A stretch of 64,000 nt of DNA from Candidatus Nomurabacteria bacterium (GTDB lineage: Bacteria; Patescibacteriota; Patescibacteriia; HK-STAS-PATE-3): NCBI GenBank assembly GCA_023898465.1, contig CP060223.1:288001-352000 (forward strand). Direction: 5' to 3'. Position numbers and translations under genes: made by a program. This document shows, one piece after another, positions 5,382 to 63,359 of this stretch. A model generated the notes under the pieces. That model was not told the origin of the DNA. It ran no database searches and was given only the letters and a program-made list of their open reading frames with translations. Every line of letters starts with the position of its first letter. The stretch's first letter is position 1.

Positions 5382-5456
5382 GGCCCTATCGTCTAGTGGC
5401 TAGGACGCATGGTTCTCATCCATGTAACAGGGGTTCGATTCCCCTTAGGGCTACCA
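5382..5456 (+). tRNA. tRNA-Glu (anticodon CTC), CCA encoded
   Basis: Cloverleaf folded by hand: acceptor GGCCCTA/TAGGGCT, D-arm GTCTAGTGGCTAGGAC (near-identical to E. coli tRNA-Glu), anticodon stem CATGG/CCATG with loop TTCTCAT, T-arm AGGGGTTCGATTCCCCT, discriminator A, CCA. Confidence 0.9.
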
Positions 5457-6520: not shown

Positions 6521-7633
6521 ATGAAGATTGGCATAGTTACGCAGAGCTTTTTCCCCATTCGCGGAGGTGTCGCAGAACACGTCTATCATACAGCGCATGC
6601 TTTAGAGCGGCGCGGACACGAGGTCGTTATTATTACGGCCAATTTTAGTCGTTTTGATGAGGATAGGGGATGTCGGGTCGAGCGCATCGGCCGCGATTTA
6701 ACCATTCCCTTTAATCAGGCTTTTGTAAACCTGACCATTAGCTGGAATATCCCGCAGGAGTTACGCCACCTAGAGCGCAAGTACGGCTTCGACGTGGTGC
6801 ATATTCACGGACCCTACGAACCATTTTTACCTGCCCTGGCGCTGAAGAATATCGAGTGCCCAAAGGTTGGCACTTTTCATGCCTTTAACGCGCATCCCTC
6901 GTTGGGCTATCGCGTGTTTGAAAATTACATCCGAACCTTTAAGGATCGTTTGTCAGCCCGCATCGCGGTTTCGCAAGCCGCTAAGGACTTTATCTCGCAT
7001 CATTTCCCGGATGATTATGAAATCATCCCAAACGGCGTGGATGTGCAGCGCTTTAGTCCGCAGGTCAAACCCTTCCCTTGGTATAACCCAGAGAAATTCA
7101 CCATCCTCTTTGTCGGTCGTATGGATCCGCGCAAAGGTTTGAAATATCTCTTACGCGCCTTCACCATGATCGCGTCCGAGTTCCCGCAGGCCGAGGTGGT
7201 GGTTGTCGGCAATGGTATATTGCGTCGCTATTACGAAACCTTTTTAGAGCCGAGCCTGAAAGATCGCGTGCGTTTCGAGGGCTTTGTCTCGGCTGCAGAT
7301 TTACCGCGCTACTATGCCTCCAGCGATGTGTATGTGTCGCCAGCCACCGGCAATGAGAGTTTCGGCATTGTCTTGCTCGAGGGTATGGCCAGCGGCAAGC
7401 CGGTGATTGCGTCGGATATTGACGGGTATCGGGATGTGATTCGCCATGGCCAGGATGGGATTTTGGTGCCAAAATCTGACCCAGCCGCCCTAGCCCAGGC
7501 TCTCCGCACCCTGGCCCGTGACCCGCAAGAAAGAGCAAAATACCAGCAGGCCGGCCGTCAGCGGGCTGAGGAATTCTCCTGGGAGTCTATTACTGACCGC
7601 TTGGAGGAGGTGTATAGGAGGGTGGTGTATTGA
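6521..7633 (+). CDS. GT4-family glycosyltransferase
   Basis: Glycos_transf_1-like C-terminus with EGMASGKPVIASDIDGYRDVI (E-x7-E) motif. Confidence 0.75.
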   Translation: MKIGIVTQSFFPIRGGVAEHVYHTAHALERRGHEVVIITANFSRFDEDRGCRVERIGRDLTIPFNQAFVNLTISWNIPQELRHLERKYGFDVVHIHGPYEPFLPALALKNIECPKVGTFHAFNAHPSLGYRVFENYIRTFKDRLSARIAVSQAAKDFISHHFPDDYEIIPNGVDVQRFSPQVKPFPWYNPEKFTILFVGRMDPRKGLKYLLRAFTMIASEFPQAEVVVVGNGILRRYYETFLEPSLKDRVRFEGFVSAADLPRYYASSDVYVSPATGNESFGIVLLEGMASGKPVIASDIDGYRDVIRHGQDGILVPKSDPAALAQALRTLARDPQERAKYQQAGRQRAEEFSWESITDRLEEVYRRVVY

Positions 7634-7666
7634 ACGTAGCAATGGAAGAATTATTAAAGTAAAAGA

Positions 7667-10600
7667 ATGGACTCTGCCCCATTAACACTACAAACGAAGA
7701 CACTGCAGAGGTCTTCCGATCTAAATAATTACAGACTCTATCGCGCAGCTCTTGAATGGGAGTTGATTGATCCTATTGTCATAGAAGACCGGGATGACAT
7801 GCATTCCGAAAGTAGTTGGCGTGATCGTCTTGAGCCGTATCATCATCAAGTAACTAACCTAATAACTTTTTGTCGTCGCCTACCTGTTACTTTACTGGCG
7901 GATGATGTCGGGTTAGGAAAAACAATTAGTGCTGGCCTAGTTTTAAGCGAGTTAATTTCGCGCGGGAGAATTTCAAAAATATTAATAGTTTGCCCAAAAA
8001 TACTTCGAGATCAGTGGAAAGAAGAATTGGAAATAAAGTTCCGAATTCCGTCCACAATTGTGACAGGAAGAGAATTAATTACGGCAAAGCCTCCTGAAGA
8101 ACCAGGAGCGGTAATTACCACATACAATACGGCCAGACTGTATTTAGATAGAATTGACCAGAATGGTTTTGAAATATTGATACTTGATGAGGCGCATAAA
8201 TTGCGGAATCTATATGGTGTTGACCCAACACCTCAAGTTGCAATTAAATTCCGTAAAGCTCTGGCTGACCGGATGTTTAAGTACGTATTAATGTTAACTG
8301 CAACGCCGATCCAGAACAGACTATGGGATCTCTACTCGTTGGTTGACTTATTAACCGTTGCACGCGGCCATGAAAATCCCTTTGGAACGCCAGGTATTTT
8401 TGCGAGAAAATTTATTGCAGATAGTCGCACACAAGCGCGTCAGCTTAATCCGGAGATGCGGGATGAGTTTCGCTCAATTATTTACGGTTATATGTCTCGG
8501 GTTCGTCGTGGAGATGCAAAACTCCACTTCCCAGAGCGGGTAGTACAGTTGCATAAAGTTGACCCAACACCAGAAGAATTGCAGTTGATCGGTGTGGTCG
8601 GAAAATCTATACAACAACTGAATGCGCTTACACAAATTGTAATCCTCCAAGCTTTGGTGAGTAGTCCAGAAGCGCTAATAAAGATGTTAGAAGGAATGGC
8701 TAAAAAAGGAACCGTACCGCGTGAGGTGTTGGCGAACGTTAAGGAATCAGCCAAAGAAATTCAAATCACTACAAAACTAAAAGGTTTGGGCGCGTTAGTT
8801 GAAAAACTTAGAAAGGAGCAACCCAATACTTGGCGGGTGGTAGTTTTTACAAGATGGCGAGAAACTCAAACAACTATCGAAACTTTTCTTGAAAAGCAAG
8901 GAGTAAAATGCGGCTTGATAAATGGCGATTCAAGTAAGCGAAATCAGGAAACAATCCAAAGATTTAAAAAAGACTTACCAGACATTAATGTAATTATTTC
9001 TACTGAAGCAGGTTCGGAGGGCGTTAACCTTCAGGCCGCTAATGTTTTGGTTAATTACGATCTCCCCTGGAATCCAATGATAGTGGAACAAAGAATAGGT
9101 CGTATTCAAAGACTTGCTTCTAATTATGCAAATGTTTCTATTTTTAATATTGTTTTGCAAAATACCTTTGAAGAATATATTGTAGGGCGCTTGATGGAAA
9201 AGTTGCAGATGGCTTCTCATGCAATTGGGGATATTGAAGCACTATTGGAAGCATCCGGCATTGATGAAGGTGAAGAAAATGGCTCAAGTGGTTTTGAAGA
9301 AAAAATTCGCCAGTTAGTAGTTGCATCTTTAGCTGGAAAAGATGTTGAGCAGGCAACTCGTAAAGCTGAACAGAGTATTTCAGAAGCTAAAACAGAATTA
9401 GACCATGAAGAAAAGAACATTAATGCTTTACTTGGGGGGATGAGTGATTCTCTAGATTCTGGTCCAAGATGTCCGAAGCTTCCTCAAACTACTAAGTCGA
9501 TGGATGTCCGTGATTTTACTACGGCTGCTCTTATGAGCTTAGGCGCGGAACTACATCCAAAAAAGGATGGTTTATTAGTTTCACAACTTGCTGGGAAAAA
9601 AGAATTAATCCGATTTGATAATAACACTCTGAGCAGTGAAGAGGAGAGTGTCTTATATGCACCGGGAACTTCAACTTTTGAACGCTTAGTCCATAAAGTT
9701 GCAAATGTAGGAAAACACATTGTTGAAGACCTTGATAAAAACCCCCAACAGCAAATTGAGAAAGTAAGTCGTCAATGGGTCGAAAGTTTTGGCGGAGACT
9801 TCGAAAATGTAACGGTAGAGGACGTTTCTCGATGTTTTGCAGGAGTAGCAATAATTCGTGCAAGATCAACAGTAGCTCACGATAGTTATGAGCGTCTCAT
9901 TGAGGTTTCGTGCGCTCCCACTGAGCATTTCAGTTTTGTGACAAGAACGGGATTGGAACCCATCGGAGACTATATTGAAAATCCGACATCTGTTGGTGCG
10001 CTTTCAGAAAAATTAATTGAAAAAGCCAGCCAAGACTCGAGTATTCTTGAGTTCTGTAGATTTTATTTAGAACGAAGATCTCAAGAAATTGCCTCCGCAG
10101 GAAATGACGAAAGAAAAAAGAAAAAGCTTGAGGATGAGTTTACGCCCCGTCTTGAATTTTCCCTAGTCGGTCTTGAGGGCAAGGTTCATCGGATAGTTAA
10201 AAATCAGGTCTCTTATAGAATTGAACGTGAGGGCCAATACAAAAGTACCCTCATGATAACCCCCTCTTCTGGGCAAGTTGATATGCCGGGGATGGGACAA
10301 TGCATGAAAACAGGTAAGACTGTACCGAGCGATTGCTTAGCAAAGTGCGAAATAAGCGGACTTATAGTATTGCGGCATTTTCTTGATCAATCAGAGATCA
10401 GTAATCGACTGGCGCTCCCTGAGCACATCGTTTTATGTACGTTAAGCAACAAGCGAGTGCTAGCGGACGAAGCTATAAAATCAGATGTTACGGGCAAACT
10501 AGTCGCAAAGAAGTTTTTAAAAACATCTTCTCTGAGTGGCAAATTCGCTGAACCACAGTTCATTAACACTTGTGAGTTTACAAAAACAGAAGTTCTGGAA

Positions 10601-11194
10601 AGCGAAATTGCGGTCAGCCAGATTTCAGGAAAAAGATATCGCATTGATGAGCAACTTAAATCCGCAGTTTCAGGAAAACTAGGCCATCGACAAGAATTTG
10701 TAGCAAGTAGTATTTCATCAGCCCCACTTCTTGAAGAAGAAGCCATTCGTTCGGTCACTGGAAAATTTTGTGCACCAATGGAAGCGAGGCCCTGCACTTG
10801 GAGTGGTCGAAAGTGTCACCCCGAAGACCTTAGGACTTGCGAGTTGACCGGAGTCCAAATTCATTCAGAGTACGTAACGCTCGAACCACCAATTCGTTTA
10901 GAAACCCTAAATAATCTTTTGAATGGCACGAGGAGCAAATCTGACAAATTGGAAGTATGGCCTTCACTTTCAAATAGCGTTACAGCTTTATTAAAAGCAA
11001 AACGTTGTAAAATTGAAACAGCAGAAGTTTCACCTAGTGACGATATTTTGGCCGCTTCTATAGAGCTTCGAACTTTTCTAGGCCTGCGCGTGAGTCACAT
11101 TGGCGTACTTTATTCAATAAAGGATGGATCCGTAGTCGGGCGTGTTGCTAGAGGCAAGCGTGGTGATAAGGGCTGGAATCAAACTAAGAACTAA
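7667..11194 (+). CDS. SNF2-family DEAD-like helicase (1175 aa) with a long uncharacterised C-terminal extension containing 15-aa tandem repeats
   Basis: Motif I ADDVGLGKT, motif II LILDEAHKLRN, motif III LTATPIQN, helicase-C STEAGSEGVNLQ and motif VI DLPWNPMIVEQRIGRIQR. About 600 aa after the helicase core have no recognised domain. Low-GC region. Confidence 0.85.
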   Translation: MDSAPLTLQTKTLQRSSDLNNYRLYRAALEWELIDPIVIEDRDDMHSESSWRDRLEPYHHQVTNLITFCRRLPVTLLADDVGLGKTISAGLVLSELISRGRISKILIVCPKILRDQWKEELEIKFRIPSTIVTGRELITAKPPEEPGAVITTYNTARLYLDRIDQNGFEILILDEAHKLRNLYGVDPTPQVAIKFRKALADRMFKYVLMLTATPIQNRLWDLYSLVDLLTVARGHENPFGTPGIFARKFIADSRTQARQLNPEMRDEFRSIIYGYMSRVRRGDAKLHFPERVVQLHKVDPTPEELQLIGVVGKSIQQLNALTQIVILQALVSSPEALIKMLEGMAKKGTVPREVLANVKESAKEIQITTKLKGLGALVEKLRKEQPNTWRVVVFTRWRETQTTIETFLEKQGVKCGLINGDSSKRNQETIQRFKKDLPDINVIISTEAGSEGVNLQAANVLVNYDLPWNPMIVEQRIGRIQRLASNYANVSIFNIVLQNTFEEYIVGRLMEKLQMASHAIGDIEALLEASGIDEGEENGSSGFEEKIRQLVVASLAGKDVEQATRKAEQSISEAKTELDHEEKNINALLGGMSDSLDSGPRCPKLPQTTKSMDVRDFTTAALMSLGAELHPKKDGLLVSQLAGKKELIRFDNNTLSSEEESVLYAPGTSTFERLVHKVANVGKHIVEDLDKNPQQQIEKVSRQWVESFGGDFENVTVEDVSRCFAGVAIIRARSTVAHDSYERLIEVSCAPTEHFSFVTRTGLEPIGDYIENPTSVGALSEKLIEKASQDSSILEFCRFYLERRSQEIASAGNDERKKKKLEDEFTPRLEFSLVGLEGKVHRIVKNQVSYRIEREGQYKSTLMITPSSGQVDMPGMGQCMKTGKTVPSDCLAKCEISGLIVLRHFLDQSEISNRLALPEHIVLCTLSNKRVLADEAIKSDVTGKLVAKKFLKTSSLSGKFAEPQFINTCEFTKTEVLESEIAVSQISGKRYRIDEQLKSAVSGKLGHRQEFVASSISSAPLLEEEAIRSVTGKFCAPMEARPCTWSGRKCHPEDLRTCELTGVQIHSEYVTLEPPIRLETLNNLLNGTRSKSDKLEVWPSLSNSVTALLKAKRCKIETAEVSPSDDILAASIELRTFLGLRVSHIGVLYSIKDGSVVGRVARGKRGDKGWNQTKN
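10301..10893 (+). repeat. about 12 tandem degenerate 15-codon repeats encoding [CS]-x-h-[ST]-G-[KR]-x8 within the helicase C-terminal region
   Basis: Protein-level periodicity: CEISG, CTLSNK, SDVTGK, SSLSGK, CEFTKT, SQISGK, SAVSGK, SSISSA, SVTGK, CTWSGR, CELTGV at 15-residue spacing. Confidence 0.7.
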
Positions 11195-11195
11195 T

Positions 11196-12686
11196 ATGAA
11201 CCCTCTACTTACAAAAACCGATTATCTTCTTTACCGGGAATGCCCAAAGAATGTTTGGTATAAAATCCAAAAACCTGAATTGTATGCTACATCGGAGCTA
11301 ACAGAGTTTGAAAAATCGATAATGGAAACAGGTAATGAGGTTGAAAAGATTGCAAGGCAACTTTTTCCAAACGGGGTGTTAGTAACTTATCGTGATGCGC
11401 GCGGTCAAGCTGAGACACAAAAGCTATTGGCGGAGAACAAGGATGTGATTTTTCAGCCAGTTTTTGTCAAAAATAACTTTTTGGCTGCTATTGATGTTCT
11501 ACAAAAAGAAAAGAATGGCAAGGGCTACAATGTTTACGAAATAAAATCGACTAGTGATGTAGATAAGAAAACACATTTTCACGACCTAGCATTTCAAGTA
11601 AACGTTCTCAGAATGACAGGCCTGGGAATTAATAAATCATTTGTCATTCATCTAAACTCTGAATATATTCGAAAGGGAGAAATTGAGCTGGATCAGTTAT
11701 TTAAAGTATCAGATGTGACGGATGAAGTAGAAAGTCTTTTACCGGATGTTGCGACTGAGGCGGAAGAAGCATTGAAGTATATTAGCCAAACTTCTGAACC
11801 AGAGGGGTACTGCTGCTGTATTTATAAAGGTCGATCAAGGCATTGTTCAACCTTTCAGCTAGCGAACCCCGAAGTACCCGAATATAGTGTCCACGATATT
11901 TCTAGGATAGGGGTAAGCAAGGCTAAATTAAAAGAGCTAATTGACGGAAGTATTTTTCACCTGGACAAGATTCCGCCACACATTAAATTAAGCGAAATTC
12001 AACAAGGTCAAGTTGAAACCTATAAATTGAATAAGGTATTAGTAGATAAGGAAAGAATTGCGGAAGAATTTAGTGGTCTCACATTCCCACTTTATTTTCT
12101 TGATTATGAAACATTTCCATCAGCAATACCAAGATATGATGGCTTTTCACCATATAAACAAATTCCGTTCCAGTATTCTGTTTACAAACTAGATTCAGTC
12201 GAGAGTGAGCCAACTCATTTTGATTTTTTGTACTCTGGTCCCGAAGACCCCAGCAAGCACTTTGCCGAGTCTTTAAGGGAACATATCGGGGATAAAGGCT
12301 CGATCATCGTTTGGCATAAAGACTTCGAGTGTGGCAGAAATAATGAAATAGGTAGTCGAATTCCTACTTCGAAGGCTTTTTTTGACTCTGTTAATCAGCG
12401 AGTATACGATCTCGAAGACATTTTCAAGAAACAATACCACGTTCATCGAGATTATAAGGGAAGCACATCTATTAAAAACGTATTGCCTGTTTTAGTGCCA
12501 GAATTAACGTATAAAGACCTTGAAATTCGTGATGGTGGCAGTGCAGCGGATAGTTGGGACAAAATAATTAGTGGTGTATATAACGAGACAGAGAAAGAAA
12601 AGGTAATAAAAGATTTAAAGATTTATTGTGGTCTTGATACATTTGCAATGTATGCTATTTGGAATTGCTTGAACAAGCTACTCTAA
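11196..12686 (+). CDS. Cas4/RecB-like PD-(D/E)xK nuclease with Cys cluster fused to a DEDD-like 3'-5' exonuclease domain (DUF2779-like architecture)
   Basis: N-terminal Cys (YRECPKN), D...EIK nuclease motifs, QxxxY-like motif, CCC-x8-C cluster, then FLDYETF (Exo I-like DxE) and YDLEDIF...H motifs. Start is 1 nt after the helicase stop, so translationally coupled. Confidence 0.6.
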   Translation: MNPLLTKTDYLLYRECPKNVWYKIQKPELYATSELTEFEKSIMETGNEVEKIARQLFPNGVLVTYRDARGQAETQKLLAENKDVIFQPVFVKNNFLAAIDVLQKEKNGKGYNVYEIKSTSDVDKKTHFHDLAFQVNVLRMTGLGINKSFVIHLNSEYIRKGEIELDQLFKVSDVTDEVESLLPDVATEAEEALKYISQTSEPEGYCCCIYKGRSRHCSTFQLANPEVPEYSVHDISRIGVSKAKLKELIDGSIFHLDKIPPHIKLSEIQQGQVETYKLNKVLVDKERIAEEFSGLTFPLYFLDYETFPSAIPRYDGFSPYKQIPFQYSVYKLDSVESEPTHFDFLYSGPEDPSKHFAESLREHIGDKGSIIVWHKDFECGRNNEIGSRIPTSKAFFDSVNQRVYDLEDIFKKQYHVHRDYKGSTSIKNVLPVLVPELTYKDLEIRDGGSAADSWDKIISGVYNETEKEKVIKDLKIYCGLDTFAMYAIWNCLNKLL

Positions 12687-12690
12687 ACCT

Positions 12691-13392
12691 ATGAGCTTTC
12701 TTAAGATTTTTAGTGATGATTCTAAAGACAAGCCAAAAGAAAATGATAGTCGGAAACCTGAATGTCCATACTGTCAGGGCGTTTTAGTTAAAATTCCTGC
12801 TAGAAAAACAAAATGTTTTCACTGTGGGAAATATATTTTTGTACGAACACAGACAAAGGACAGAAAGCTCGTTTTGGTTACTGAAGAAAATTCGGCCGCG
12901 ATAGACTCTGAATGGGAGTCAAAACAAGCCGCTACGATCACTTCATTGGTGGAGAAAGTAGATTTTACAAAGAAAAAAGAAGGTCTGCGCGAAGGGTTTG
13001 GGGACAAGGAACCCTCCGTTAGTGACATAAAGTGGGGCTTGTGGAACAAGAGGCTTCAGGAAGCAATGAAACGCAATGATTTTTCAGAACTTTCAGGAAT
13101 ATATTTTCAAATGGCTCTGCGCTTGCACGAAAGTGGAAAAGACAGCTTTAAACTTCAGGGCCAGGCTCAAAAAATGTTTTTGTTTAAAGAAAAGCAAAGC
13201 GGTGTTGTTTCTAGCGTAGAGGTTTTTTCTAGAGATGGCTGTGAAGAATGTAAGAAAATAAACGGAAAGAAATTTGTTATTTTTGAAGCACTAAAACTCA
13301 TGCCACTACCCGTTCAATCCTGCACAAACAAACTGAATAAGAATGCGCCCAATGGTTGGTGTCGATGCACTTTTCTTCCTTTTATAGATTAA
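12691..13392 (+). CDS. double zinc-ribbon protein (hypothetical)
   Basis: N-terminal CPYC-x18-CFHC and C-terminal CEEC...C-x3-C...CRC motifs. Begins 4 nt after the nuclease stop. Confidence 0.5.
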   Translation: MSFLKIFSDDSKDKPKENDSRKPECPYCQGVLVKIPARKTKCFHCGKYIFVRTQTKDRKLVLVTEENSAAIDSEWESKQAATITSLVEKVDFTKKKEGLREGFGDKEPSVSDIKWGLWNKRLQEAMKRNDFSELSGIYFQMALRLHESGKDSFKLQGQAQKMFLFKEKQSGVVSSVEVFSRDGCEECKKINGKKFVIFEALKLMPLPVQSCTNKLNKNAPNGWCRCTFLPFID

Positions 13393-13545
13393 GACTTTGC
13401 CACCAATACTTTTGTTTCGGTCGCTGAGCATCCACCCTTTTTATCCCCCTCTGCCGATCTTCTAAAAAGAAACGGGAATTTAATCACGTAAAAAATAAAG
13501 AGGACCCATTATAACCCCTTGCCTCCGTCATTCGCGAACGACGGG

Positions 13546-13574
13546 GTTGACAGGGCTTTTTTGTTATACTATTC
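13546..13574 (+). promoter_or_regulatory. sigma70-like promoter of the hrcA operon (TTGACA-17-TATTCT)
   Basis: Consensus -35 hexamer, 17-nt spacer, reasonable -10, immediately upstream of CIRCE. Confidence 0.55.
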
Positions 13575-13579
13575 TTGTT

Positions 13580-13606
13580 TTAGCACTCAAATATTGAGAG
13601 TGCTAA
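13580..13606 (+). promoter_or_regulatory. CIRCE operator (TTAGCACTC-N9-GAGTGCTAA), HrcA binding site
   Basis: Perfect 9-9-9 inverted repeat matching the CIRCE consensus, 10 nt upstream of hrcA. Confidence 0.9.
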
Positions 13607-13615
13607 TTCAAGCCC

Positions 13616-14883: not shown

Positions 14884-15294
14884 ATGGCAATTATCAAATG
14901 GAGTCCTTTTGCAGACATGCTTGGCGAAGATTTCTTCGAAGACATGCCGCTGGCTCGTAATTATCGCTTTGTCCCGGCCCTCGACATTTATGAGGATAAG
15001 GACAACATCGTAGTAGAAACCCCACTCTCGGGCATTGATCCAAACAAAGTAAATATTGAGATCGAGGACAACATCCTCAAAATCTCTGGATCAACCGAAA
15101 AGAAATCCGAAGTGGATGAAAAAAACTACTACCGCAAAGAAGTCCGCAGTGGACAATTCTTCCGCTCGGTTGCCCTGCCAAAAGCAGTGGATGCAGATAA
15201 GGCTGATGCGCAATATCACGACGGTATCCTGAAAATCACCGTGCCAAAGCGCGAAGAAGCCAAGCCAAAGACTATTTCCGTTCAAGTAAAGTAA
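14884..15294 (+). CDS. Hsp20/alpha-crystallin small heat-shock protein
   Basis: Alpha-crystallin domain pattern (PALDIYEDKDNIVVETPLSGIDPNKVNIEIEDNILKISG). AGGAG RBS. Confidence 0.8.
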   Translation: MAIIKWSPFADMLGEDFFEDMPLARNYRFVPALDIYEDKDNIVVETPLSGIDPNKVNIEIEDNILKISGSTEKKSEVDEKNYYRKEVRSGQFFRSVALPKAVDADKADAQYHDGILKITVPKREEAKPKTISVQVK

Positions 15295-15358
15295 ATTCGC
15301 CGTTTGAGCAGCCCCGCCTACGCTAAAAGCTTTGGCGGGGAACTGAGACGAGGAACCT

Positions 15359-17755: not shown

Positions 17756-18085
17756 ATGGCCAACAATTACAATATGCCCCCACAACAACAACGCCCGCAG
17801 ATTCAGATTAAGATTGCTGATGAGCAATTAAAAGGTGCTTACACCAACTCGGTGGCAGTTTTTCACTCCAAAGAGGAGTTTGTGCTTGATTTCATGAACG
17901 TGTATCCACCGCAAGGCATGGGCACGGTTGTCAGTCGCGTGATCACCAGCCCGGGACACATGAAGCGCCTCCTGGCAGCTCTGCAGGACAATATTGCCAA
18001 ATATGAGAAGCAACATGGTAAAATAGAAGAGGCAAAAACGCCTGACGCATCATTTGGCTTTAATACCGAAGAAAAGGATAAATAA
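17756..18085 (+). CDS. DUF3467-like protein
   Basis: YTNSVAVFHSKEEFVLDF motif characteristic of DUF3467. Located between dnaK and dnaJ. Confidence 0.5.
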   Translation: MANNYNMPPQQQRPQIQIKIADEQLKGAYTNSVAVFHSKEEFVLDFMNVYPPQGMGTVVSRVITSPGHMKRLLAALQDNIAKYEKQHGKIEEAKTPDASFGFNTEEKDK

Positions 18086-18337
18086 ATGGAAGAAGATAGT
18101 GAAAATAAATTAGTAAGCTGGAAAATAAAATTTATTTTTGGAGCCGTGATCGTGTCACTTTTTGCGGTTGAGGTAGGTGCTTTGTATGAACATGCGCCGA
18201 TGAATGATCATACAGGACCATGTAAGGTTATTGATTGCCATCAGGATCATACTGAAGAGTCTATATTTAACGGGGCAGTAAGTGGTATTTCTCCGTCAGG
18301 AACCATGGATTATACTGACCTTAACATTCCAAGCTAG
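18086..18337 (+). CDS. hypothetical small membrane protein
   Basis: 83-aa ORF with one TM segment. Start is adjacent to the previous stop. Confidence 0.35.
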   Translation: MEEDSENKLVSWKIKFIFGAVIVSLFAVEVGALYEHAPMNDHTGPCKVIDCHQDHTEESIFNGAVSGISPSGTMDYTDLNIPS

Positions 18338-18351
18338 TAGTTATAGTTATT

Positions 18352-19419
18352 ATGGCCTCGAAGCAAAACAAAAAAAAGAAAGAAGAGCCAGTCGCGCCTT
18401 TGCAATACCATCAGCGTAATCGTTTGATAGGGATATACGCCTTTGCGATTCTTGCTTGGGCAGGCTTTTGGTGGCTCATCCGGACGGCCTTTGCTGCAGA
18501 GATGCTACTTAGCGCAGAAACGCTTTGGCTCGTCAGTGGTGCTTTTGTGCTGTTTGGGCTTTCCCTTGGACTCTTTGGCTTGATGGCGGCAGTTGTTCGC
18601 ATACCGCGTTGGGGCGTTCTCTATGCCGCCGGAGCTGGGCTATTGCCGATCGCGTTTTTCCCTTTGAACCTTTTTACTTTGGCCGGAGCTTTACTGCTCA
18701 TGGCAGTGTGGTTTCGCTATTGGGCCATGGTAACGGAGGAGTCTGAGCATCGCATTCGCTTCAATCTAGTAAAAAGTGTTACCCACGGACTTGGTACGAT
18801 AATTTACCTGACCGTATTAAGTGTGGCCGTGTTTTATCTGGCCGTGACCAGTCAGTCGAATCAAACAAGCACGACATTTATTGATAACGTAACAAACTCC
18901 GCCTCTGATGCCGTCTTAGCAGTGCTGGATAATCAGCTGCCGGAATTTGATGCACAAATGACTTTGGATGCATTTATTACGCAGTATAGCGACCAGGATA
19001 TCACCGCCCTTTTACCTGAAAACTTTTTACCGGAAGACGTAAATAAATCCTTATTGGAAGAAAACACGCAGCAGAATATTGAAAACCTGGACGAAACCGC
19101 GCGGCAAGCAGCTATTGAAGAAGCGCGTACGCAGTTATTGCAAGCCTTGAATATTCACGCTGAGGGTAGTGACAGTATGGAAACGGTGGTGCGTCGCTTA
19201 GTGGAAGATAAACTGCAGCCGTTACTTGAGCGTTATGATACTGTTATCCCGCCAGTGCTCGCCTTAGCACTTTTCTCAGTCCTTTCCATCCTGGGCCTGG
19301 TGTATTTCTGGTGGATCGTGTTGTGGGCTTTCATTTGCTATGGTATCCTGCGAATTCTTCGCTGGGTGGAATTTGTTGAACATACGCAGACCGTCACCCG
19401 CGCGGAAATAAAGAACTGA
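18352..19419 (+). CDS. hypothetical polytopic membrane protein
   Basis: 355 aa with multiple hydrophobic helices and an acidic central region. Confidence 0.5.
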
Positions 19420-31893: not shown

Positions 31894-32005
31894 GCCGTCG
31901 CATATAAAGCGCGACGGCGCACAAAAAAGAAATATTCGCTCTCTTACAAAGTTCTCAAAACATTTATTACAAAATCCGCGCCGTCGCAATGTGAGCGCCG
32001 TCGCA
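31894..32005 (+). promoter_or_regulatory. array of GCCGTCGC motifs upstream of ssb (one palindromic pair plus two direct copies 17 bp apart)
   Basis: GCCGTCGC-ATATAAAGC-GCGACGGC palindrome at 31894-31918. GCGCCGTCGCA direct repeats at 31978-31988 and 31995-32005. Confidence 0.5.
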
Positions 32006-32070
32006 GGTGAATGTGGAAAAGTATTTTTTCTTTCAACGCATACGACAAAGGTGGCATGAAAGGAGTTCAC

Positions 32071-32481
32071 ATGGACGTGAACAAAGTAACTTTGATCGGG
32101 AATTTAGTCCGCGATCCCGAGGCGAGAAATTTACCGAGCGGACAGGCGATTAGCACTTTTTCACTCGCCACAAACTATAGCTGGCGAGACATTAAAACAA
32201 AGAGTCGCAAGGAGTCAACTGAATTTCATGACATTGTTGCCTGGGGAAAATTGGGCGAAATCATCCAGCAGTACGTGAAAAAGGGCAGCAAAGTATATAT
32301 CGAAGGTCGCCTCCACCGTCGTTCTTGGGAAGATAAGGCAAAACAAAAGCATTATCGAACCGAGGTAGTTGCAGAAAATTTGGTCATGCTAGGTCATCGT
32401 AGTGCAAAGACAAAAGAAGTTGAACCAACCGAGTTACCAAAAGATGAGGTCAGTGTAGAAGAAATCCCCGTTACCGCTTAA
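32071..32481 (+). CDS. ssb: single-stranded DNA-binding protein
   Basis: OB-fold N-terminus (VNKVTLIGNLVRDPE...), acidic C-terminal tail. Confidence 0.85.
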   Translation: MDVNKVTLIGNLVRDPEARNLPSGQAISTFSLATNYSWRDIKTKSRKESTEFHDIVAWGKLGEIIQQYVKKGSKVYIEGRLHRRSWEDKAKQKHYRTEVVAENLVMLGHRSAKTKEVEPTELPKDEVSVEEIPVTA

Positions 32482-32769
32482 GCTCTTTACACTCGAGAAG
32501 TTTGAACAAGCGTTCAGGCTTCTCGTCCGCTCAGCATGTGCGATCACTTGATGGTTCCTTTAAATTTTGATCGCCACCAAAATTTGTCTGCTATCAAGCG
32601 GCTGCTATGTTGAGTGGACGAGAGGTTAATTCTCTTCTTATGCAAATCATTTACTCCATCATTTCTATACTTATTCTCTGTGTTTTGGGAATCATTTTCC
32701 GAGTGCTTACTTGGACAGAGGAAGAAAACTAATTGTCTTTGTTGTAAGACTTTAGGTGTCTGTAGAAAA

Positions 32770-32961
32770 ATGAACAAAGCTACACTAATAAAAGGATTAC
32801 TACGTTTTGGTGCGAGCAGCTTATTACTCTCAGGGTATTATTTTCATATTTTTTCTACCGATAGCATATTGGTTGACTTAGTCGTTCCTCTTGCTACTTT
32901 TATCTTTGCCGTCTTTTTGATTGATAAAGGTGTAGATAGAGCTTTCAGAAAACTCAACTAA
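32770..32961 (+). CDS. hypothetical small membrane protein (AT-rich region)
   Basis: Internal ATG with two hydrophobic helices. Weak evidence. Confidence 0.2.
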   Translation: MNKATLIKGLLRFGASSLLLSGYYFHIFSTDSILVDLVVPLATFIFAVFLIDKGVDRAFRKLN

Positions 32962-33095
32962 AAATGGGGGAAAGAACGCCTAAGCGTTTCTTCCCCACAC
33001 TCCAATAGAGAGAATGCTGCAGCGCGGTTGCTACGTCAACGCCTGATTTTTAGCTTGGAAAAGTTAGAAAAAAATGGTATACTAAGATCGAAGAA

Positions 33096-50612: not shown

Positions 50613-51031
50613 GTGCTGACGTGCGCCGGATGACTGCTCCGCCTTAGGTGGAGAGGAAAGTCCGAACACCCCCCAAGCCCCCCATTTTTGAGAGGTTTGT
50701 GGAAGTAGGTCGTTCCGAAAGGGAACCGAGCAATTGGTTGTAAGCTTTCGGCCGAATAACCAATGGTTTAGGGAAAGTGTCACAGAGACAATACTGCCGA
50801 TGATCTCGCTTAGCGGGATACAGGTAATAGGTGAAAAGTAAGGGCCTAAGAATCCTTTCTCTTCATAGGTGACTATGAGGAGTGAAAAACCCGACCTGGT
50901 GCAAGATCGCATAGGTCTAGTCATTCGACTGGACGGGTAGATCGCATGATCCCGACGGCGACGTCGGGGCTAGAGAGATAGTCATCCCTCATTATGAGGA
51001 CAGAATTCGGCTTATAGGTGTGCGTCAGCAC
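50613..51031 (+). ncRNA. rnpB: RNase P RNA, bacterial type A
   Basis: Conserved blocks GAGGAAAGTCCGAACAC (P4), ACAGAGACAA, GGTAATAGGTGAAAAG, GACAGAATTCGGCTTAT (3' P4 strand). P1 helix GTGCTGACG/CGTCAGCAC closes the molecule. About 420 nt. Confidence 0.85.
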
Positions 51032-63283: not shown

Positions 63284-63359
63284 TGGAGCCGAAGGGGGGA
63301 GTCGAACCCCCGACCTCTGCTTTACGAAAGCATTGCTCTACCAACTGAGCTACTTCGGC
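63284..63359 (-). tRNA. tRNA-Thr (anticodon CGT), CCA encoded
   Basis: Reverse complement folds as GCCGAAG acceptor, GCTCAGTTGGTAGAGC D-arm, anticodon loop TTCGTAA, T-arm GGGGGTTCGACTCCCCC, discriminator T, CCA. Confidence 0.85.

Follow-up and report, generated by a model that had tools for sequence, protein, structure and literature searches.

What three tightly packed genes are doing in an AT-rich island next to the heat-shock operon of a Candidatus Nomurabacteria bacterium is the question raised by this locus. The window, that is, the whole stretch of 64,000 nucleotides that was analysed, holds in this island of 5.7 kb the genes for a helicase, a nuclease and a zinc protein, in which the original prediction saw a horizontally acquired candidate for defence or DNA processing. 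The reading preferred here, with moderate confidence, is that of a mosaic helicase-nuclease module which arrived by horizontal transfer and most likely restricts incoming foreign DNA such as phages and plasmids. Genomic context and analogy with known systems point to defence as the most likely function.

Foreign DNA between a glycosyltransferase gene and the heat-shock operon

The island consists of three co-directional genes on the + strand, at 7667-11194 (gene 1), 11196-12686 (gene 2) and 12691-13392 (gene 3), and the open reading frames agree with the predicted packing, with intergenic gaps of 1 nt and 4 nt. As also predicted, a GT4 glycosyltransferase gene (6521-7633) lies on the left and hrcA-grpE-hsp20-dnaK (from 13616 onward) on the right. 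The GC content of the island is 0.402 vs 0.478 ± 0.014 elsewhere (z = -5.31; 469 other windows of the island's size, the lowest at 0.4485), and GC3 is 0.33-0.35 in the island vs 0.49-0.60 in the flanking genes, so the AT-richness formerly judged by eye is real, and the island deviates strongly in both GC and GC3.

The relative L195 keeps the order TIM-GAPDH-GT4-hrcA-grpE-hsp20-dnaK with hrcA directly after GT4. Because the gene order is shared and the site is empty there, the island is an insertion; in further relatives the same junction holds other cargo. Furthermore, the cassette of genes 2 and 3, whose right edge lies at 13393..13448 (+), has a copy of 86% nucleotide identity in an unrelated context. 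The empty site and this second copy bear out horizontal acquisition: the island is foreign DNA. No recombinase, att-like repeats or further element genes were found in the island, and no methyltransferase or other device for distinguishing self from non-self was found in the island.

The motor, the dual nuclease and the zinc protein

Gene 1 (7667..11194, +) encodes a 1175-aa ATPase/translocase of an uncharacterised but widespread SNF2-type family and is 100% identical to a protein annotated at NCBI as a DEAD/DEAH box helicase of Candidatus Nomurabacteria bacterium. The SNF2 core starts at about aa 55, and the motor core spans aa 75-483 (7889..9115, +), with an N-lobe at aa 75-307 (SNF2-rel_dom, E 3.4e-26) and a C-lobe at aa 381-483 (Helicase_C, E 4e-21), which confirms the predicted SNF2 helicase. 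Both lobes are present and motifs I, II (DEAH), III and VI are intact, as in members of the SNF2 family (SF2), and 13 homologs share the motifs DDVGLGKT, DEAH, TATP and QRIGRIQR without variation. Its closest relatives of known structure, the Sulfolobus Rad54-like protein 1z63 and RapA, match in the core only. The core is nearest to the DrmD, BrxH, HmaA and ZorD models, with partial matches, and gene 1 falls under all curated NCBIfam cut-offs.

The tail of gene 1 had been described as lacking a recognisable domain and as bearing repeats, and both statements hold: past about aa 520 no Pfam family is found, and the C-terminal half has no counterpart among known families or solved folds, except for a weak fold match to the RapA C-terminal region. 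A helical and α+β region follows the helicase at aa 541-877 (9287..10297, +) with invariant D688, D690, D739 and E742. It is succeeded at aa 878-1072 (10298..10882, +) by 13 tandem 15-residue repeats of the consensus x-[CS]-x-[ILV]-[ST]-G-[KR]-x5-[ED]-x-[LIV], each modelled as two short strands and one helical turn; at the DNA level no repeat was found in this array. The copy number differs among homologs: P0011, 71% identical to gene 1, has 4 more units, P0069 a further 8, and P0147 has at least 33 units in phase. The remaining aa 1073-1175 (10883..11191, +) form an α+β domain in the AF2 model, a helix with a 4-5 stranded sheet, which is conserved across the family and matches no known one. 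The model of the C-terminal half showed no nuclease fold.

Gene 2 (11196..12686, +) encodes a predicted dual nuclease of 496 aa. Its start is taken as the ATG at 11196, 1 nt past the stop of gene 1, in agreement with the N-termini of homologs, and the GTG at 11142 in the list of open reading frames was set aside. The Cas4-like PD-(D/E)xK domain occupies aa 1-220 (11196..11855, +), where the PADLOC Cas4 model matches aa 12-182 (E 4.6e-7), with D100, E115-x-K117 and the cysteines C16/C206/C208/C217, each of which is invariant, or conserved to 90% or more, across 10 homologs. The RNase H-like DEDDy 3'-5' exonuclease domain occupies aa 296-496 (12081..12683, +), where Pfam DUF2779 (PF11074) matches aa 300-425 (E 7.9e-36, 123.5 bits vs a gathering cut-off of 23.3), with D303-x-E305, E378, D405 and Y477-x3-D481; the acidic residues are invariant in the 10 homologs, and Y477 is conserved in them as well. 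Gene 2 is therefore a member of the DUF2779 Cas4-like + DEDD nucleases by its score, its D...ExK triad and its DEDD(y) residues, and the predicted combination of a Cas4/RecB-like nuclease, a cysteine cluster and a DEDD exonuclease is correct. This architecture is known for the family (PMC3985635, PMC13621843), whose RNase H-like domain has been placed in the 3'-5' exonuclease clade (PMC3985635). No solved structure related to gene 2 by sequence was found.

Gene 3 (12691..13392, +) encodes a 233-aa zinc protein, as seen from its cysteine pattern and an AF2 model (pLDDT 71.8). Of the two zinc ribbons predicted, the N-terminal one is present (CxxC-x13-CxxC; C25, C28, C42, C45) and is followed by a helical middle, whereas the second cysteine cluster, CxxC...C...CRC (C184, C187, C211, C224, C226), is probably better described as a candidate zinc module of the MuF type (phage minor head protein, SPP1 gp7). 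Foldseek/BFVD matches are enriched for minor capsid and head-morphogenesis proteins, all at E > 0.001, and PHROGs phrog_115, 'minor head protein', is matched by the homologs P0123 (5.6e-5) and P0125 (2.2e-4), gene 3 itself reaching E 0.33. No match was found in Pfam. Only about 7 homologs are detectable, and gene 3 travels with the nuclease.

Helicase-nuclease linkage and the possible functions of the island

The family of gene 1 comprises about 780 clusters at 50% identity in many phyla, and homologs 50-74% identical to it occur in Patescibacteria, Nitrospirota, Acidobacteriota, Elusimicrobiota and Alphaproteobacteria; the GT4 gene of the host, by contrast, has no relative above 63% identity. 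On this sequence distribution the family is evidently mobile across phyla. Immune genes evolve fast and are seldom as well conserved in sequence as this helicase, which counts against a defence reading. Among 64 helicase loci no shared neighbourhood or conserved synteny was found; the neighbourhoods are unrelated and rich in recombinases and defence genes: SIR2 + HerA, type I RM plus an OLD/UvrD pair, OLD/GajA/AriA-like ATPases, MADS genes, AbiEii, DUF2130 and serine/tyrosine recombinases. The enrichment of defence genes is modest and is a raw figure, taken without a background set. The C-terminal module of the helicase was absent from the viral contigs of IMG/VR, from the phages of GenBank and from the plasmids of PLSDB, so gene 1 belongs to cellular islands rather than to phages.

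In about 30% of the helicase loci (about 19 of 64) a Cas4 + RNase H-like nuclease is directly adjacent, in either gene order and with gaps of 1-11 nt. The partner is either of the DUF2779 type or of the TM0106 type, the latter, fused or adjacent, having the sister COG2251 architecture (PDDEXK_1 + RNase_H_2), and in P0116 the nuclease is fused to the N-terminus of the helicase. Conversely, a helicase of the gene 1 family adjoins 24 of the 80 closest relatives of gene 2 in metagenomes. Relatives of gene 2 also have as neighbours GmrSD, a GajA-like + UvrD pair, Eco57I-type and type ISP RM, PIF1 and SF1 helicases, WYL, PLD and dGTPase, a context in keeping with the preferred reading. Because adjacency at about 30% is reciprocal and occurs in both orders, and because a fusion protein exists, the helicase and nucleases of the gene 2 architecture are judged from gene arrangement to be functionally linked. 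No link between these nucleases and this SNF2 family was found in the literature searched. The expectation of a conserved three-gene system failed: pairs recur, but the exact combination of three was seen in this island alone, with L011 as its one variant. Within 10 kb, about two thirds of the helicase homologs lack such a nuclease, so the motor may act alone or with another partner. This touches one of the outcomes that had been named as refuting the prediction, but the solo copies are not in the conserved synteny expected of a housekeeping helicase.

The motor of gene 1 and both nuclease domains of gene 2 retain their catalytic residues. In the module proposed here, gene 1 would be an ATP-driven SNF2-type double-strand DNA translocase, and its C-terminal region, a hairpin array of variable length with flanking α+β domains, may form a surface for target recognition or partner docking. 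Gene 2 would contribute two nucleases acting in opposite polarity, one Cas4/RecB-like, metal-dependent and probably Fe-S-dependent, the other a DEDDy 3'-5' exonuclease, so that motor and nuclease, if coupled, could processively degrade both DNA strands, by the logic of RecBCD/AddAB and of the helicase-nuclease defence proteins HmaA and ZorD. Gene 3 would be an accessory of the nuclease, possibly an adaptor for DNA ends or regulation.

A wider claim, more tentative than the one preferred, is that the gene 1 family, whether or not a nuclease accompanies it, is an unrecognised broad system against mobile elements, with the repeats as sensor or ruler and DUF2779/TM0106 proteins as promiscuous effectors. 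If so, the expandable array of 15-residue hairpins (13 to at least 33 units) would be a new sensor or ruler domain choosing the target of the motor, and the DUF2779/TM0106 dual nucleases would plug into many motors: SNF2, SF1, PIF1, GmrSD and Gabija-like.

Repair or recombination, in which an incidentally mobile module would help the cell to mend its own double-strand breaks or crosslinks as an analog of AddAB/RecBCD or MrfAB, is less likely, though a serious competitor of the defence reading. The Cas4-like domain with its cysteine ligands is similar to nucleases of the RecB/AddB family, and the DEDD domain to the repair exonuclease MrfB (PMC13621843). The minimal Mycoplasma JCVI-syn3.0 has a quasi-essential DUF2779 gene (PMC13621843), and a module of this kind could serve repair in genome-reduced CPR bacteria. 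Moreover, relatives 44-54% identical to gene 2 occupy housekeeping-like conserved neighbourhoods (gyrB...pheS-pheT and RNase_H_2-thioredoxin...rpoD/dnaG). However, the closest relatives, at 56% identity or more, adjoin helicases, RM genes and recombinases and not housekeeping genes, the copy in the window is an insertion absent in a syntenic relative, the helicase family crosses phyla without conserved synteny, and the searches assigned the genes to no known repair pathway; such an assignment had been named as an outcome that would speak against the prediction.

It is quite improbable that gene 1 is a RapA/BrxHII-like remodeller of transcription or nucleoprotein acting without a nuclease, beside which genes 2 and 3 landed as an independent cassette. 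RapA has N-terminal, Tudor-like RNA-polymerase-binding domains, for which a core starting at about aa 55 leaves little room, its model scores 124.6, far under the cut-off of 576, and a chance landing is hard to square with the reciprocal adjacency, the short gaps, the two nuclease families and the fusion. Least probable of all, and very doubtful, is a function serving the mobile element itself, for example in replicating or recombining an integrative element or in counter-defence. Large serine recombinases within 10 kb of the helicase at 12 loci, tyrosine integrases at 6 and, nearby at 5 loci, putative ParB-methylase genes, as read from the sequence, would fit it, as would the candidate MuF-like module of gene 3, of a kind characteristic of phage head and polyvalent proteins, and relatives of gene 2 on 20 IMG/VR contigs and 29 plasmids. 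Nevertheless, the island itself is devoid of recombinase, att-like repeats and other element genes, searches of viral contigs, phage genomes and plasmids did not recover the helicase module, and gene 2 has no match in 50,697 GenBank phages.

Relation of the proposed helicase-nuclease module to known systems

The view that the island matches no nameable system is upheld, since DISARM, Zorya, Hma, BREX and RapA all fit badly. Gene 1 scores 215.5 against the NCBIfam cut-off of 610 for DISARM DrmD, and its neighbours are GT4 and hrcA, without DrmABC or a methylase; for Zorya ZorD it scores 72.9 against 1500, and no ZorA/ZorB is in the flanks. The match to BREX BrxHI/BrxHII falls short of full length, consisting of 3 stretches that add up to 193 bits, and no PglZ, BrxC or PglX was found in the flanks in the window or in the helicase loci examined. 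RapA was likewise rejected on its score and on the missing synteny across the 64 loci. A CRISPR-associated Cas4 was set aside too: no cas genes are in the flanks and no tandem repeat array is in the window, and the domain in gene 2 is a 'solo' Cas4-like one. Membership of RecBCD/AddAB requires an SF1 UvrD-like motor, while gene 1 is SNF2/SF2.

Resemblances are nevertheless instructive. HmaA is an SNF2 helicase with a C-terminal NOV_C PD-(D/E)xK nickase (PMC11232893), and the island is like Hma in pairing a PD-(D/E)xK nuclease with an SNF2 motor that is about as long (about 1200 aa) and in the association with defence islands. However, the PADLOC HmaA model matches the motor only (E 7e-46), NOV_C is absent from gene 1 in Pfam, the nuclease is separate (N-terminally fused in P0116) and of another two-domain architecture, HmaB methylase and HmaC ATPase are lacking, and the module of C-terminal repeats is unique. 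Zorya ZorD, an SNF2 helicase fused to an Mrr-like nuclease, shares the logic of motor plus PD-(D/E)xK nuclease. Profiles of the DrmD/BrxHII/RapA clade score best on the motor and on the first segment behind the helicase, but the scores are 3-4 fold under the curated cut-offs, gene 1 has no Tudor-like N-terminus, the partner genes are absent from the island, and those families lack the 15-residue repeat array and the terminal domain.

As proposed for the module, a motor feeds DNA to a RecB-family, Fe-S-associated nuclease in RecBCD/AddAB, which serve both degradation of foreign linear DNA and repair, whereas the motor of the island is SF2/SNF2, gene 2 adds a DEDDy exonuclease and a component for Chi recognition is not known. 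Gene 2 itself is a PF11074 member of the same architecture as the DUF2779/UU173 family (MMSYN1_0389 of JCVI-syn3.0, PMC13621843), although it scores 75 vs the NCBIfam cut-off of 225 for UU173, and the Cas4-like + RNase H-like architecture of the COG2251/TM0106 'RecB-family nuclease' (PMC3985635) is akin to it.

The three-gene block and its insertion site

The island consists of three co-directional open reading frames (ORFs) on the forward strand, gene 1 (7667-11194, 1175 aa) for a SNF2-type helicase, gene 2 (11196-12686, 496 aa) for a Cas4-like plus DUF2779 DEDDy nuclease and gene 3 (12691-13392, 233 aa) for a zinc protein. The ORF lister gives a GTG start at 11142 for gene 2; the ATG at 11196, which is 1 nt past the gene 1 stop, agrees with the N-termini of homologs and is used here, and the gap between genes 2 and 3 is 4 nt. 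The island is flanked on its 5' side by GAPDH, tRNA-Glu, a 179-aa ORF and a GT4 glycosyltransferase gene, and on its 3' side by hrcA, grpE, hsp20 and dnaK. The GC content of the island is 0.402 versus 0.478 ± 0.014 across 469 same-sized windows elsewhere (minimum 0.4485; z = -5.31), and GC3 is 0.33-0.35 in the island genes versus 0.49-0.60 in the flanking genes, so the original prediction of an AT-rich three-gene island is right in its ORFs, gaps, flanks and composition.

The junction segments of the window (7634-7666 and 13393-13615) were compared with those of three related loci. Even the nearest homologs of the host GT4 gene share no more than 63% identity with it. The first, L195, has the order TIM-GAPDH-60 aa-172 aa-GT4-hrcA-grpE-hsp20-dnaK with 263 nt from GT4 to the hrcA start (L195 8141-8403), and its GT4|hrcA junction is an empty site. 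L197 has a urocanase gene and L196 several small unrelated genes at this junction. Because it is empty in L195 and holds different cargo in L197, L196 and the window, the junction is a variable spot. The three-gene block is an insertion, and the suspected horizontal acquisition is borne out by the empty site and the GC and GC3 deviation. The exact boundaries and a target duplication are not definable from this comparison, since the intergenic DNA of these relatives is unalignable except for the hrcA promoter and CIRCE operator, which are kept in all three loci. No att sites or integrase were found around the island. In the window, 13547-13604 carries a sigma-70-like promoter TTGACA-17-TATACT and, 3' of it, a perfect CIRCE operator TTAGCACTC-N9-GAGTGCTAA, and both elements also precede hrcA in L195 and L197.

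The GT4 gene (6521-7633) has host GC and is probably outside the island proper. With its C-terminal half alone it scores 33.8 bits against PF20706 "GT4 in conflict systems", above the Pfam threshold. It matches generic GT1/GT4 families far more strongly, and the GT4 genes of island-less syntenic relatives hit PF20706 as well. The window also contains tRNA-Glu(CTC) at 5382-5456, a class A bacterial RNase P RNA at 50618-51030 (164.8 bits), tRNA-Thr(CGT) at 63284-63359 and other local GC dips at 18001-19000 (0.447) and 32001-33000 (0.414).

The helicase and its C-terminal repeat module

Gene 1 has the Pfam domains SNF2-rel_dom (aa 75-307) and Helicase_C (aa 381-483), with ATPase motifs invariant across the aligned homologs, and past Helicase_C there is no Pfam domain. 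PADLOC and NCBIfam gave partial matches to BrxH, DrmD, HmaA, DpdE, ZorD and RapA, all far under the curated cut-offs (for example, DrmD 215 vs 610); PDB sequence searches gave SNF2 cores only, and the C-terminal half, searched as a profile, matched no PDB entry. The AF2 model of aa 541-1175 (pLDDT 81.6) predicts helical and alpha+beta sub-domains, then a run of highly regular strand-strand-turn units and finally an alpha+beta domain.

An exhaustive profile search gave 784 clusters at 50% identity, in nearly all of which the C-terminal module begins at about aa 540, with proteins of 1200-2100 aa and up to 11 matched stretches. The number of 15-residue repeats varies: the homolog P0011, 71% identical to gene 1, has four more units, P0069 a further eight, and P0147 at least 33 in-phase units (aa 1080-1560). 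Some family members grow to 1900-2100 aa by repeat expansion. The repeat module is without known precedent and, because PDB searches gave no structural precedent for the array and its copy number differs between close relatives, the array is a candidate specificity element which merits structural study.

Gene 1 has full-length homologs of 50-74% identity in Patescibacteria, Nitrospirota, Elusimicrobiota, Acidobacteriota, many Alphaproteobacteria (cultured Bradyrhizobium and Rhodopseudomonas among them) and one gammaproteobacterium, Arenimonas donghaensis; Planctomycetota carry a branch of about 37% identity. Nitrospira proteins resemble the window protein about as closely as those of other Patescibacteria do, and no E. 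coli homolog was found in a search of one branch. The idea that the helicase came from a phage or plasmid was rejected, as its C-terminal module had zero matches in IMG/VR viral contigs, 50,697 GenBank phage genomes and 72,556 plasmids (PLSDB).

Gene 1 neighbourhoods differ entirely from locus to locus. Neighbours that recur are large serine recombinases (12 loci), tyrosine integrases (6 loci), ParB-methylases (5 loci, read from sequence only), OLD/AAA_15 ATPases (5 loci), DUF2130 (3 loci) and SbcD-like proteins (3 loci), in addition to SIR2+HerA, type I RM plus an OLD/UvrD pair, AbiEii and MADS genes. An OLD-family ATPase paired with DUF2130 adjoins the helicase in L015 (14883-18207) and L048 (6578-9885), and may be a further accessory module that recurs. 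In L008, the closest relative, the gene 3' of the nuclease (15022-15324) begins like a DUF2130 protein, with a zinc ribbon plus coiled coil.

Nuclease partners and the zinc protein

Gene 2 matches DUF2779 (E 7.9e-36) and, in its N-terminal domain, PADLOC Cas4 (E 4.6e-7). An alignment of 10 homologs shows conservation of the nuclease residues D100, E115 and K117, the cysteines C16, C206, C208 and C217 and the exonuclease-domain residues D303, E305, E378, D405, Y477 and D481. In the literature the family is a fusion of a Cas4-like domain with a DEDD(h/y) exonuclease and is called uncharacterised (PMC3985635, PMC13621843), and no solved relative was found by sequence.

Among 64 non-redundant helicase loci, a DUF2779-type nuclease directly adjoins the helicase in about 13 and a nuclease of the sister TM0106/COG2251 type (PDDEXK_1+RNase_H_2) in about 6, with gaps of 1-11 nt and in either gene order. 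Furthermore, the latter type is fused to the helicase N-terminus in P0116, and, of the 80 metagenomic relatives closest to gene 2, 24 adjoin a helicase of the gene 1 family. Two non-orthologous nucleases of like architecture, one fusion and reciprocal adjacency argue for helicase and nuclease as functional partners. The three genes together are not a conserved unit. About two thirds of the helicases have neither nuclease type as neighbour. A conserved third gene was also ruled out, as the genes 3' of the nuclease at other loci are of unrelated families. On the chromosome of Bradyrhizobium sp. STM 3562 (L039 13710-18279), the TM0106-type nuclease beside the helicase is in two pieces about 3.2 kb apart, separated by unrelated ORFs, and looks like an insertion-disrupted partner gene.

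The gene 2-type nuclease is promiscuous in its partners. Other relatives directly adjoin GmrSD, a PIF1 helicase plus ResIII protein, WYL-WCX proteins, a GajA-like+UvrD pair with an Eco57I-type enzyme, type ISP RM, another SNF2 helicase, SF1 helicases of 1500-1800 aa, Cas4-like proteins, N6/N4 methylases, PLD proteins and dGTPase.

A search of 5.8 billion clusters gave just 7 homologs of gene 3. The protein has a CxxC-x13-CxxC ribbon at its N-terminus, helices in the middle and, at its C-terminus, a conserved G-C-E-x-C...P-L-P...C...W-C-R-C module, and its predicted model is of moderate quality (pLDDT 71.8). Its BFVD matches are weak (all E > 0.001) and enriched for minor capsid and head-morphogenesis proteins, and the homologs P0123 (5.6e-5) and P0125 (2.2e-4) match phrog_115 "minor head protein", so the C-terminal part is probably a MuF-like zinc module. 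Gene 3 relatives adjoin a gene 2-type nuclease in the window, L091, L089 and L122 and a TM0106-type nuclease in L011. Because only those in L087/L088 have neither nuclease type beside them, gene 3 follows the nuclease and not the helicase. In L089 (3280-10027), a 1517-aa SF1 helicase (AAA_11/AAA_12, Zn_ribbon_Top1), a gene 3 homolog and a DUF2779 nuclease, in that order, repeat the three-part logic of the island with a different motor.

Possible function and comparison with known systems

The island pairs an intact SNF2 motor with a nuclease protein whose two active sites are both intact and, as judged by family, of opposite polarity; the genes are operonically coupled and were inserted horizontally. 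The motor would translocate on dsDNA and feed or recruit the gene 2 nuclease, which would degrade both strands in a RecBCD/AddAB-like manner, while the repeat array could be a recognition or docking surface and gene 3 may modulate the nuclease or bind DNA ends. Restriction of incoming DNA is the most likely role of such a module, with about an even chance. A repair or recombination module is possible but rather doubtful. In its favour, gene 2 relatives at 44-54% identity stand in conserved, housekeeping-like neighbourhoods in some metagenomic lineages, gyrB...DUF2779-pheS-pheT and RNase_H_2-thioredoxin-DUF2779 near rpoD/dnaG (L163, L165, L167, L178, L179; L133, L136, L139, L176), and the minimal cell JCVI-syn3.0 has a quasi-essential DUF2779 family member (PMC13621843); therefore part of the family does have a role in genome maintenance. 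A RapA-like solo remodeller with a hitch-hiking gene 2/gene 3 cassette is unlikely, and a function serving a mobile element itself very improbable.

Should its role be restriction of foreign DNA, the module would be a widespread addition to helicase-nuclease immunity in many phyla, reaching genome-reduced CPR bacteria, where defences are poorly known, and would give DUF2779-type dual nucleases their first function. The question is directly testable because some carriers of the gene 1 family are in culture (Rhodopseudomonas pseudopalustris DSM 123, Bradyrhizobium spp. and Arenimonas donghaensis). The island is a solid, experimentally tractable candidate, one among many context-predicted systems, with a putative defence role.

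Assignment to a known system was tried with PADLOC, NCBIfam and Pfam, which gave partial motor matches only. Hma was ruled out by the lack of a NOV_C domain in gene 1, and Hna was considered from the literature, with no close solved structure. As originally predicted, the island matches no namable system, and it stands outside DISARM, Zorya, Hma, BREX and RapA because it lacks a defining feature tested for each. Full-text literature searches found no description of a SNF2 helicase paired with a DUF2779/COG2251/TM0106 nuclease. The island is best classed as a putative helicase-nuclease conflict module, itself a known kind, in which the C-terminal repeat module is without known precedent, and it is proposed to work like HmaA, ZorD or RecBCD/AddAB.
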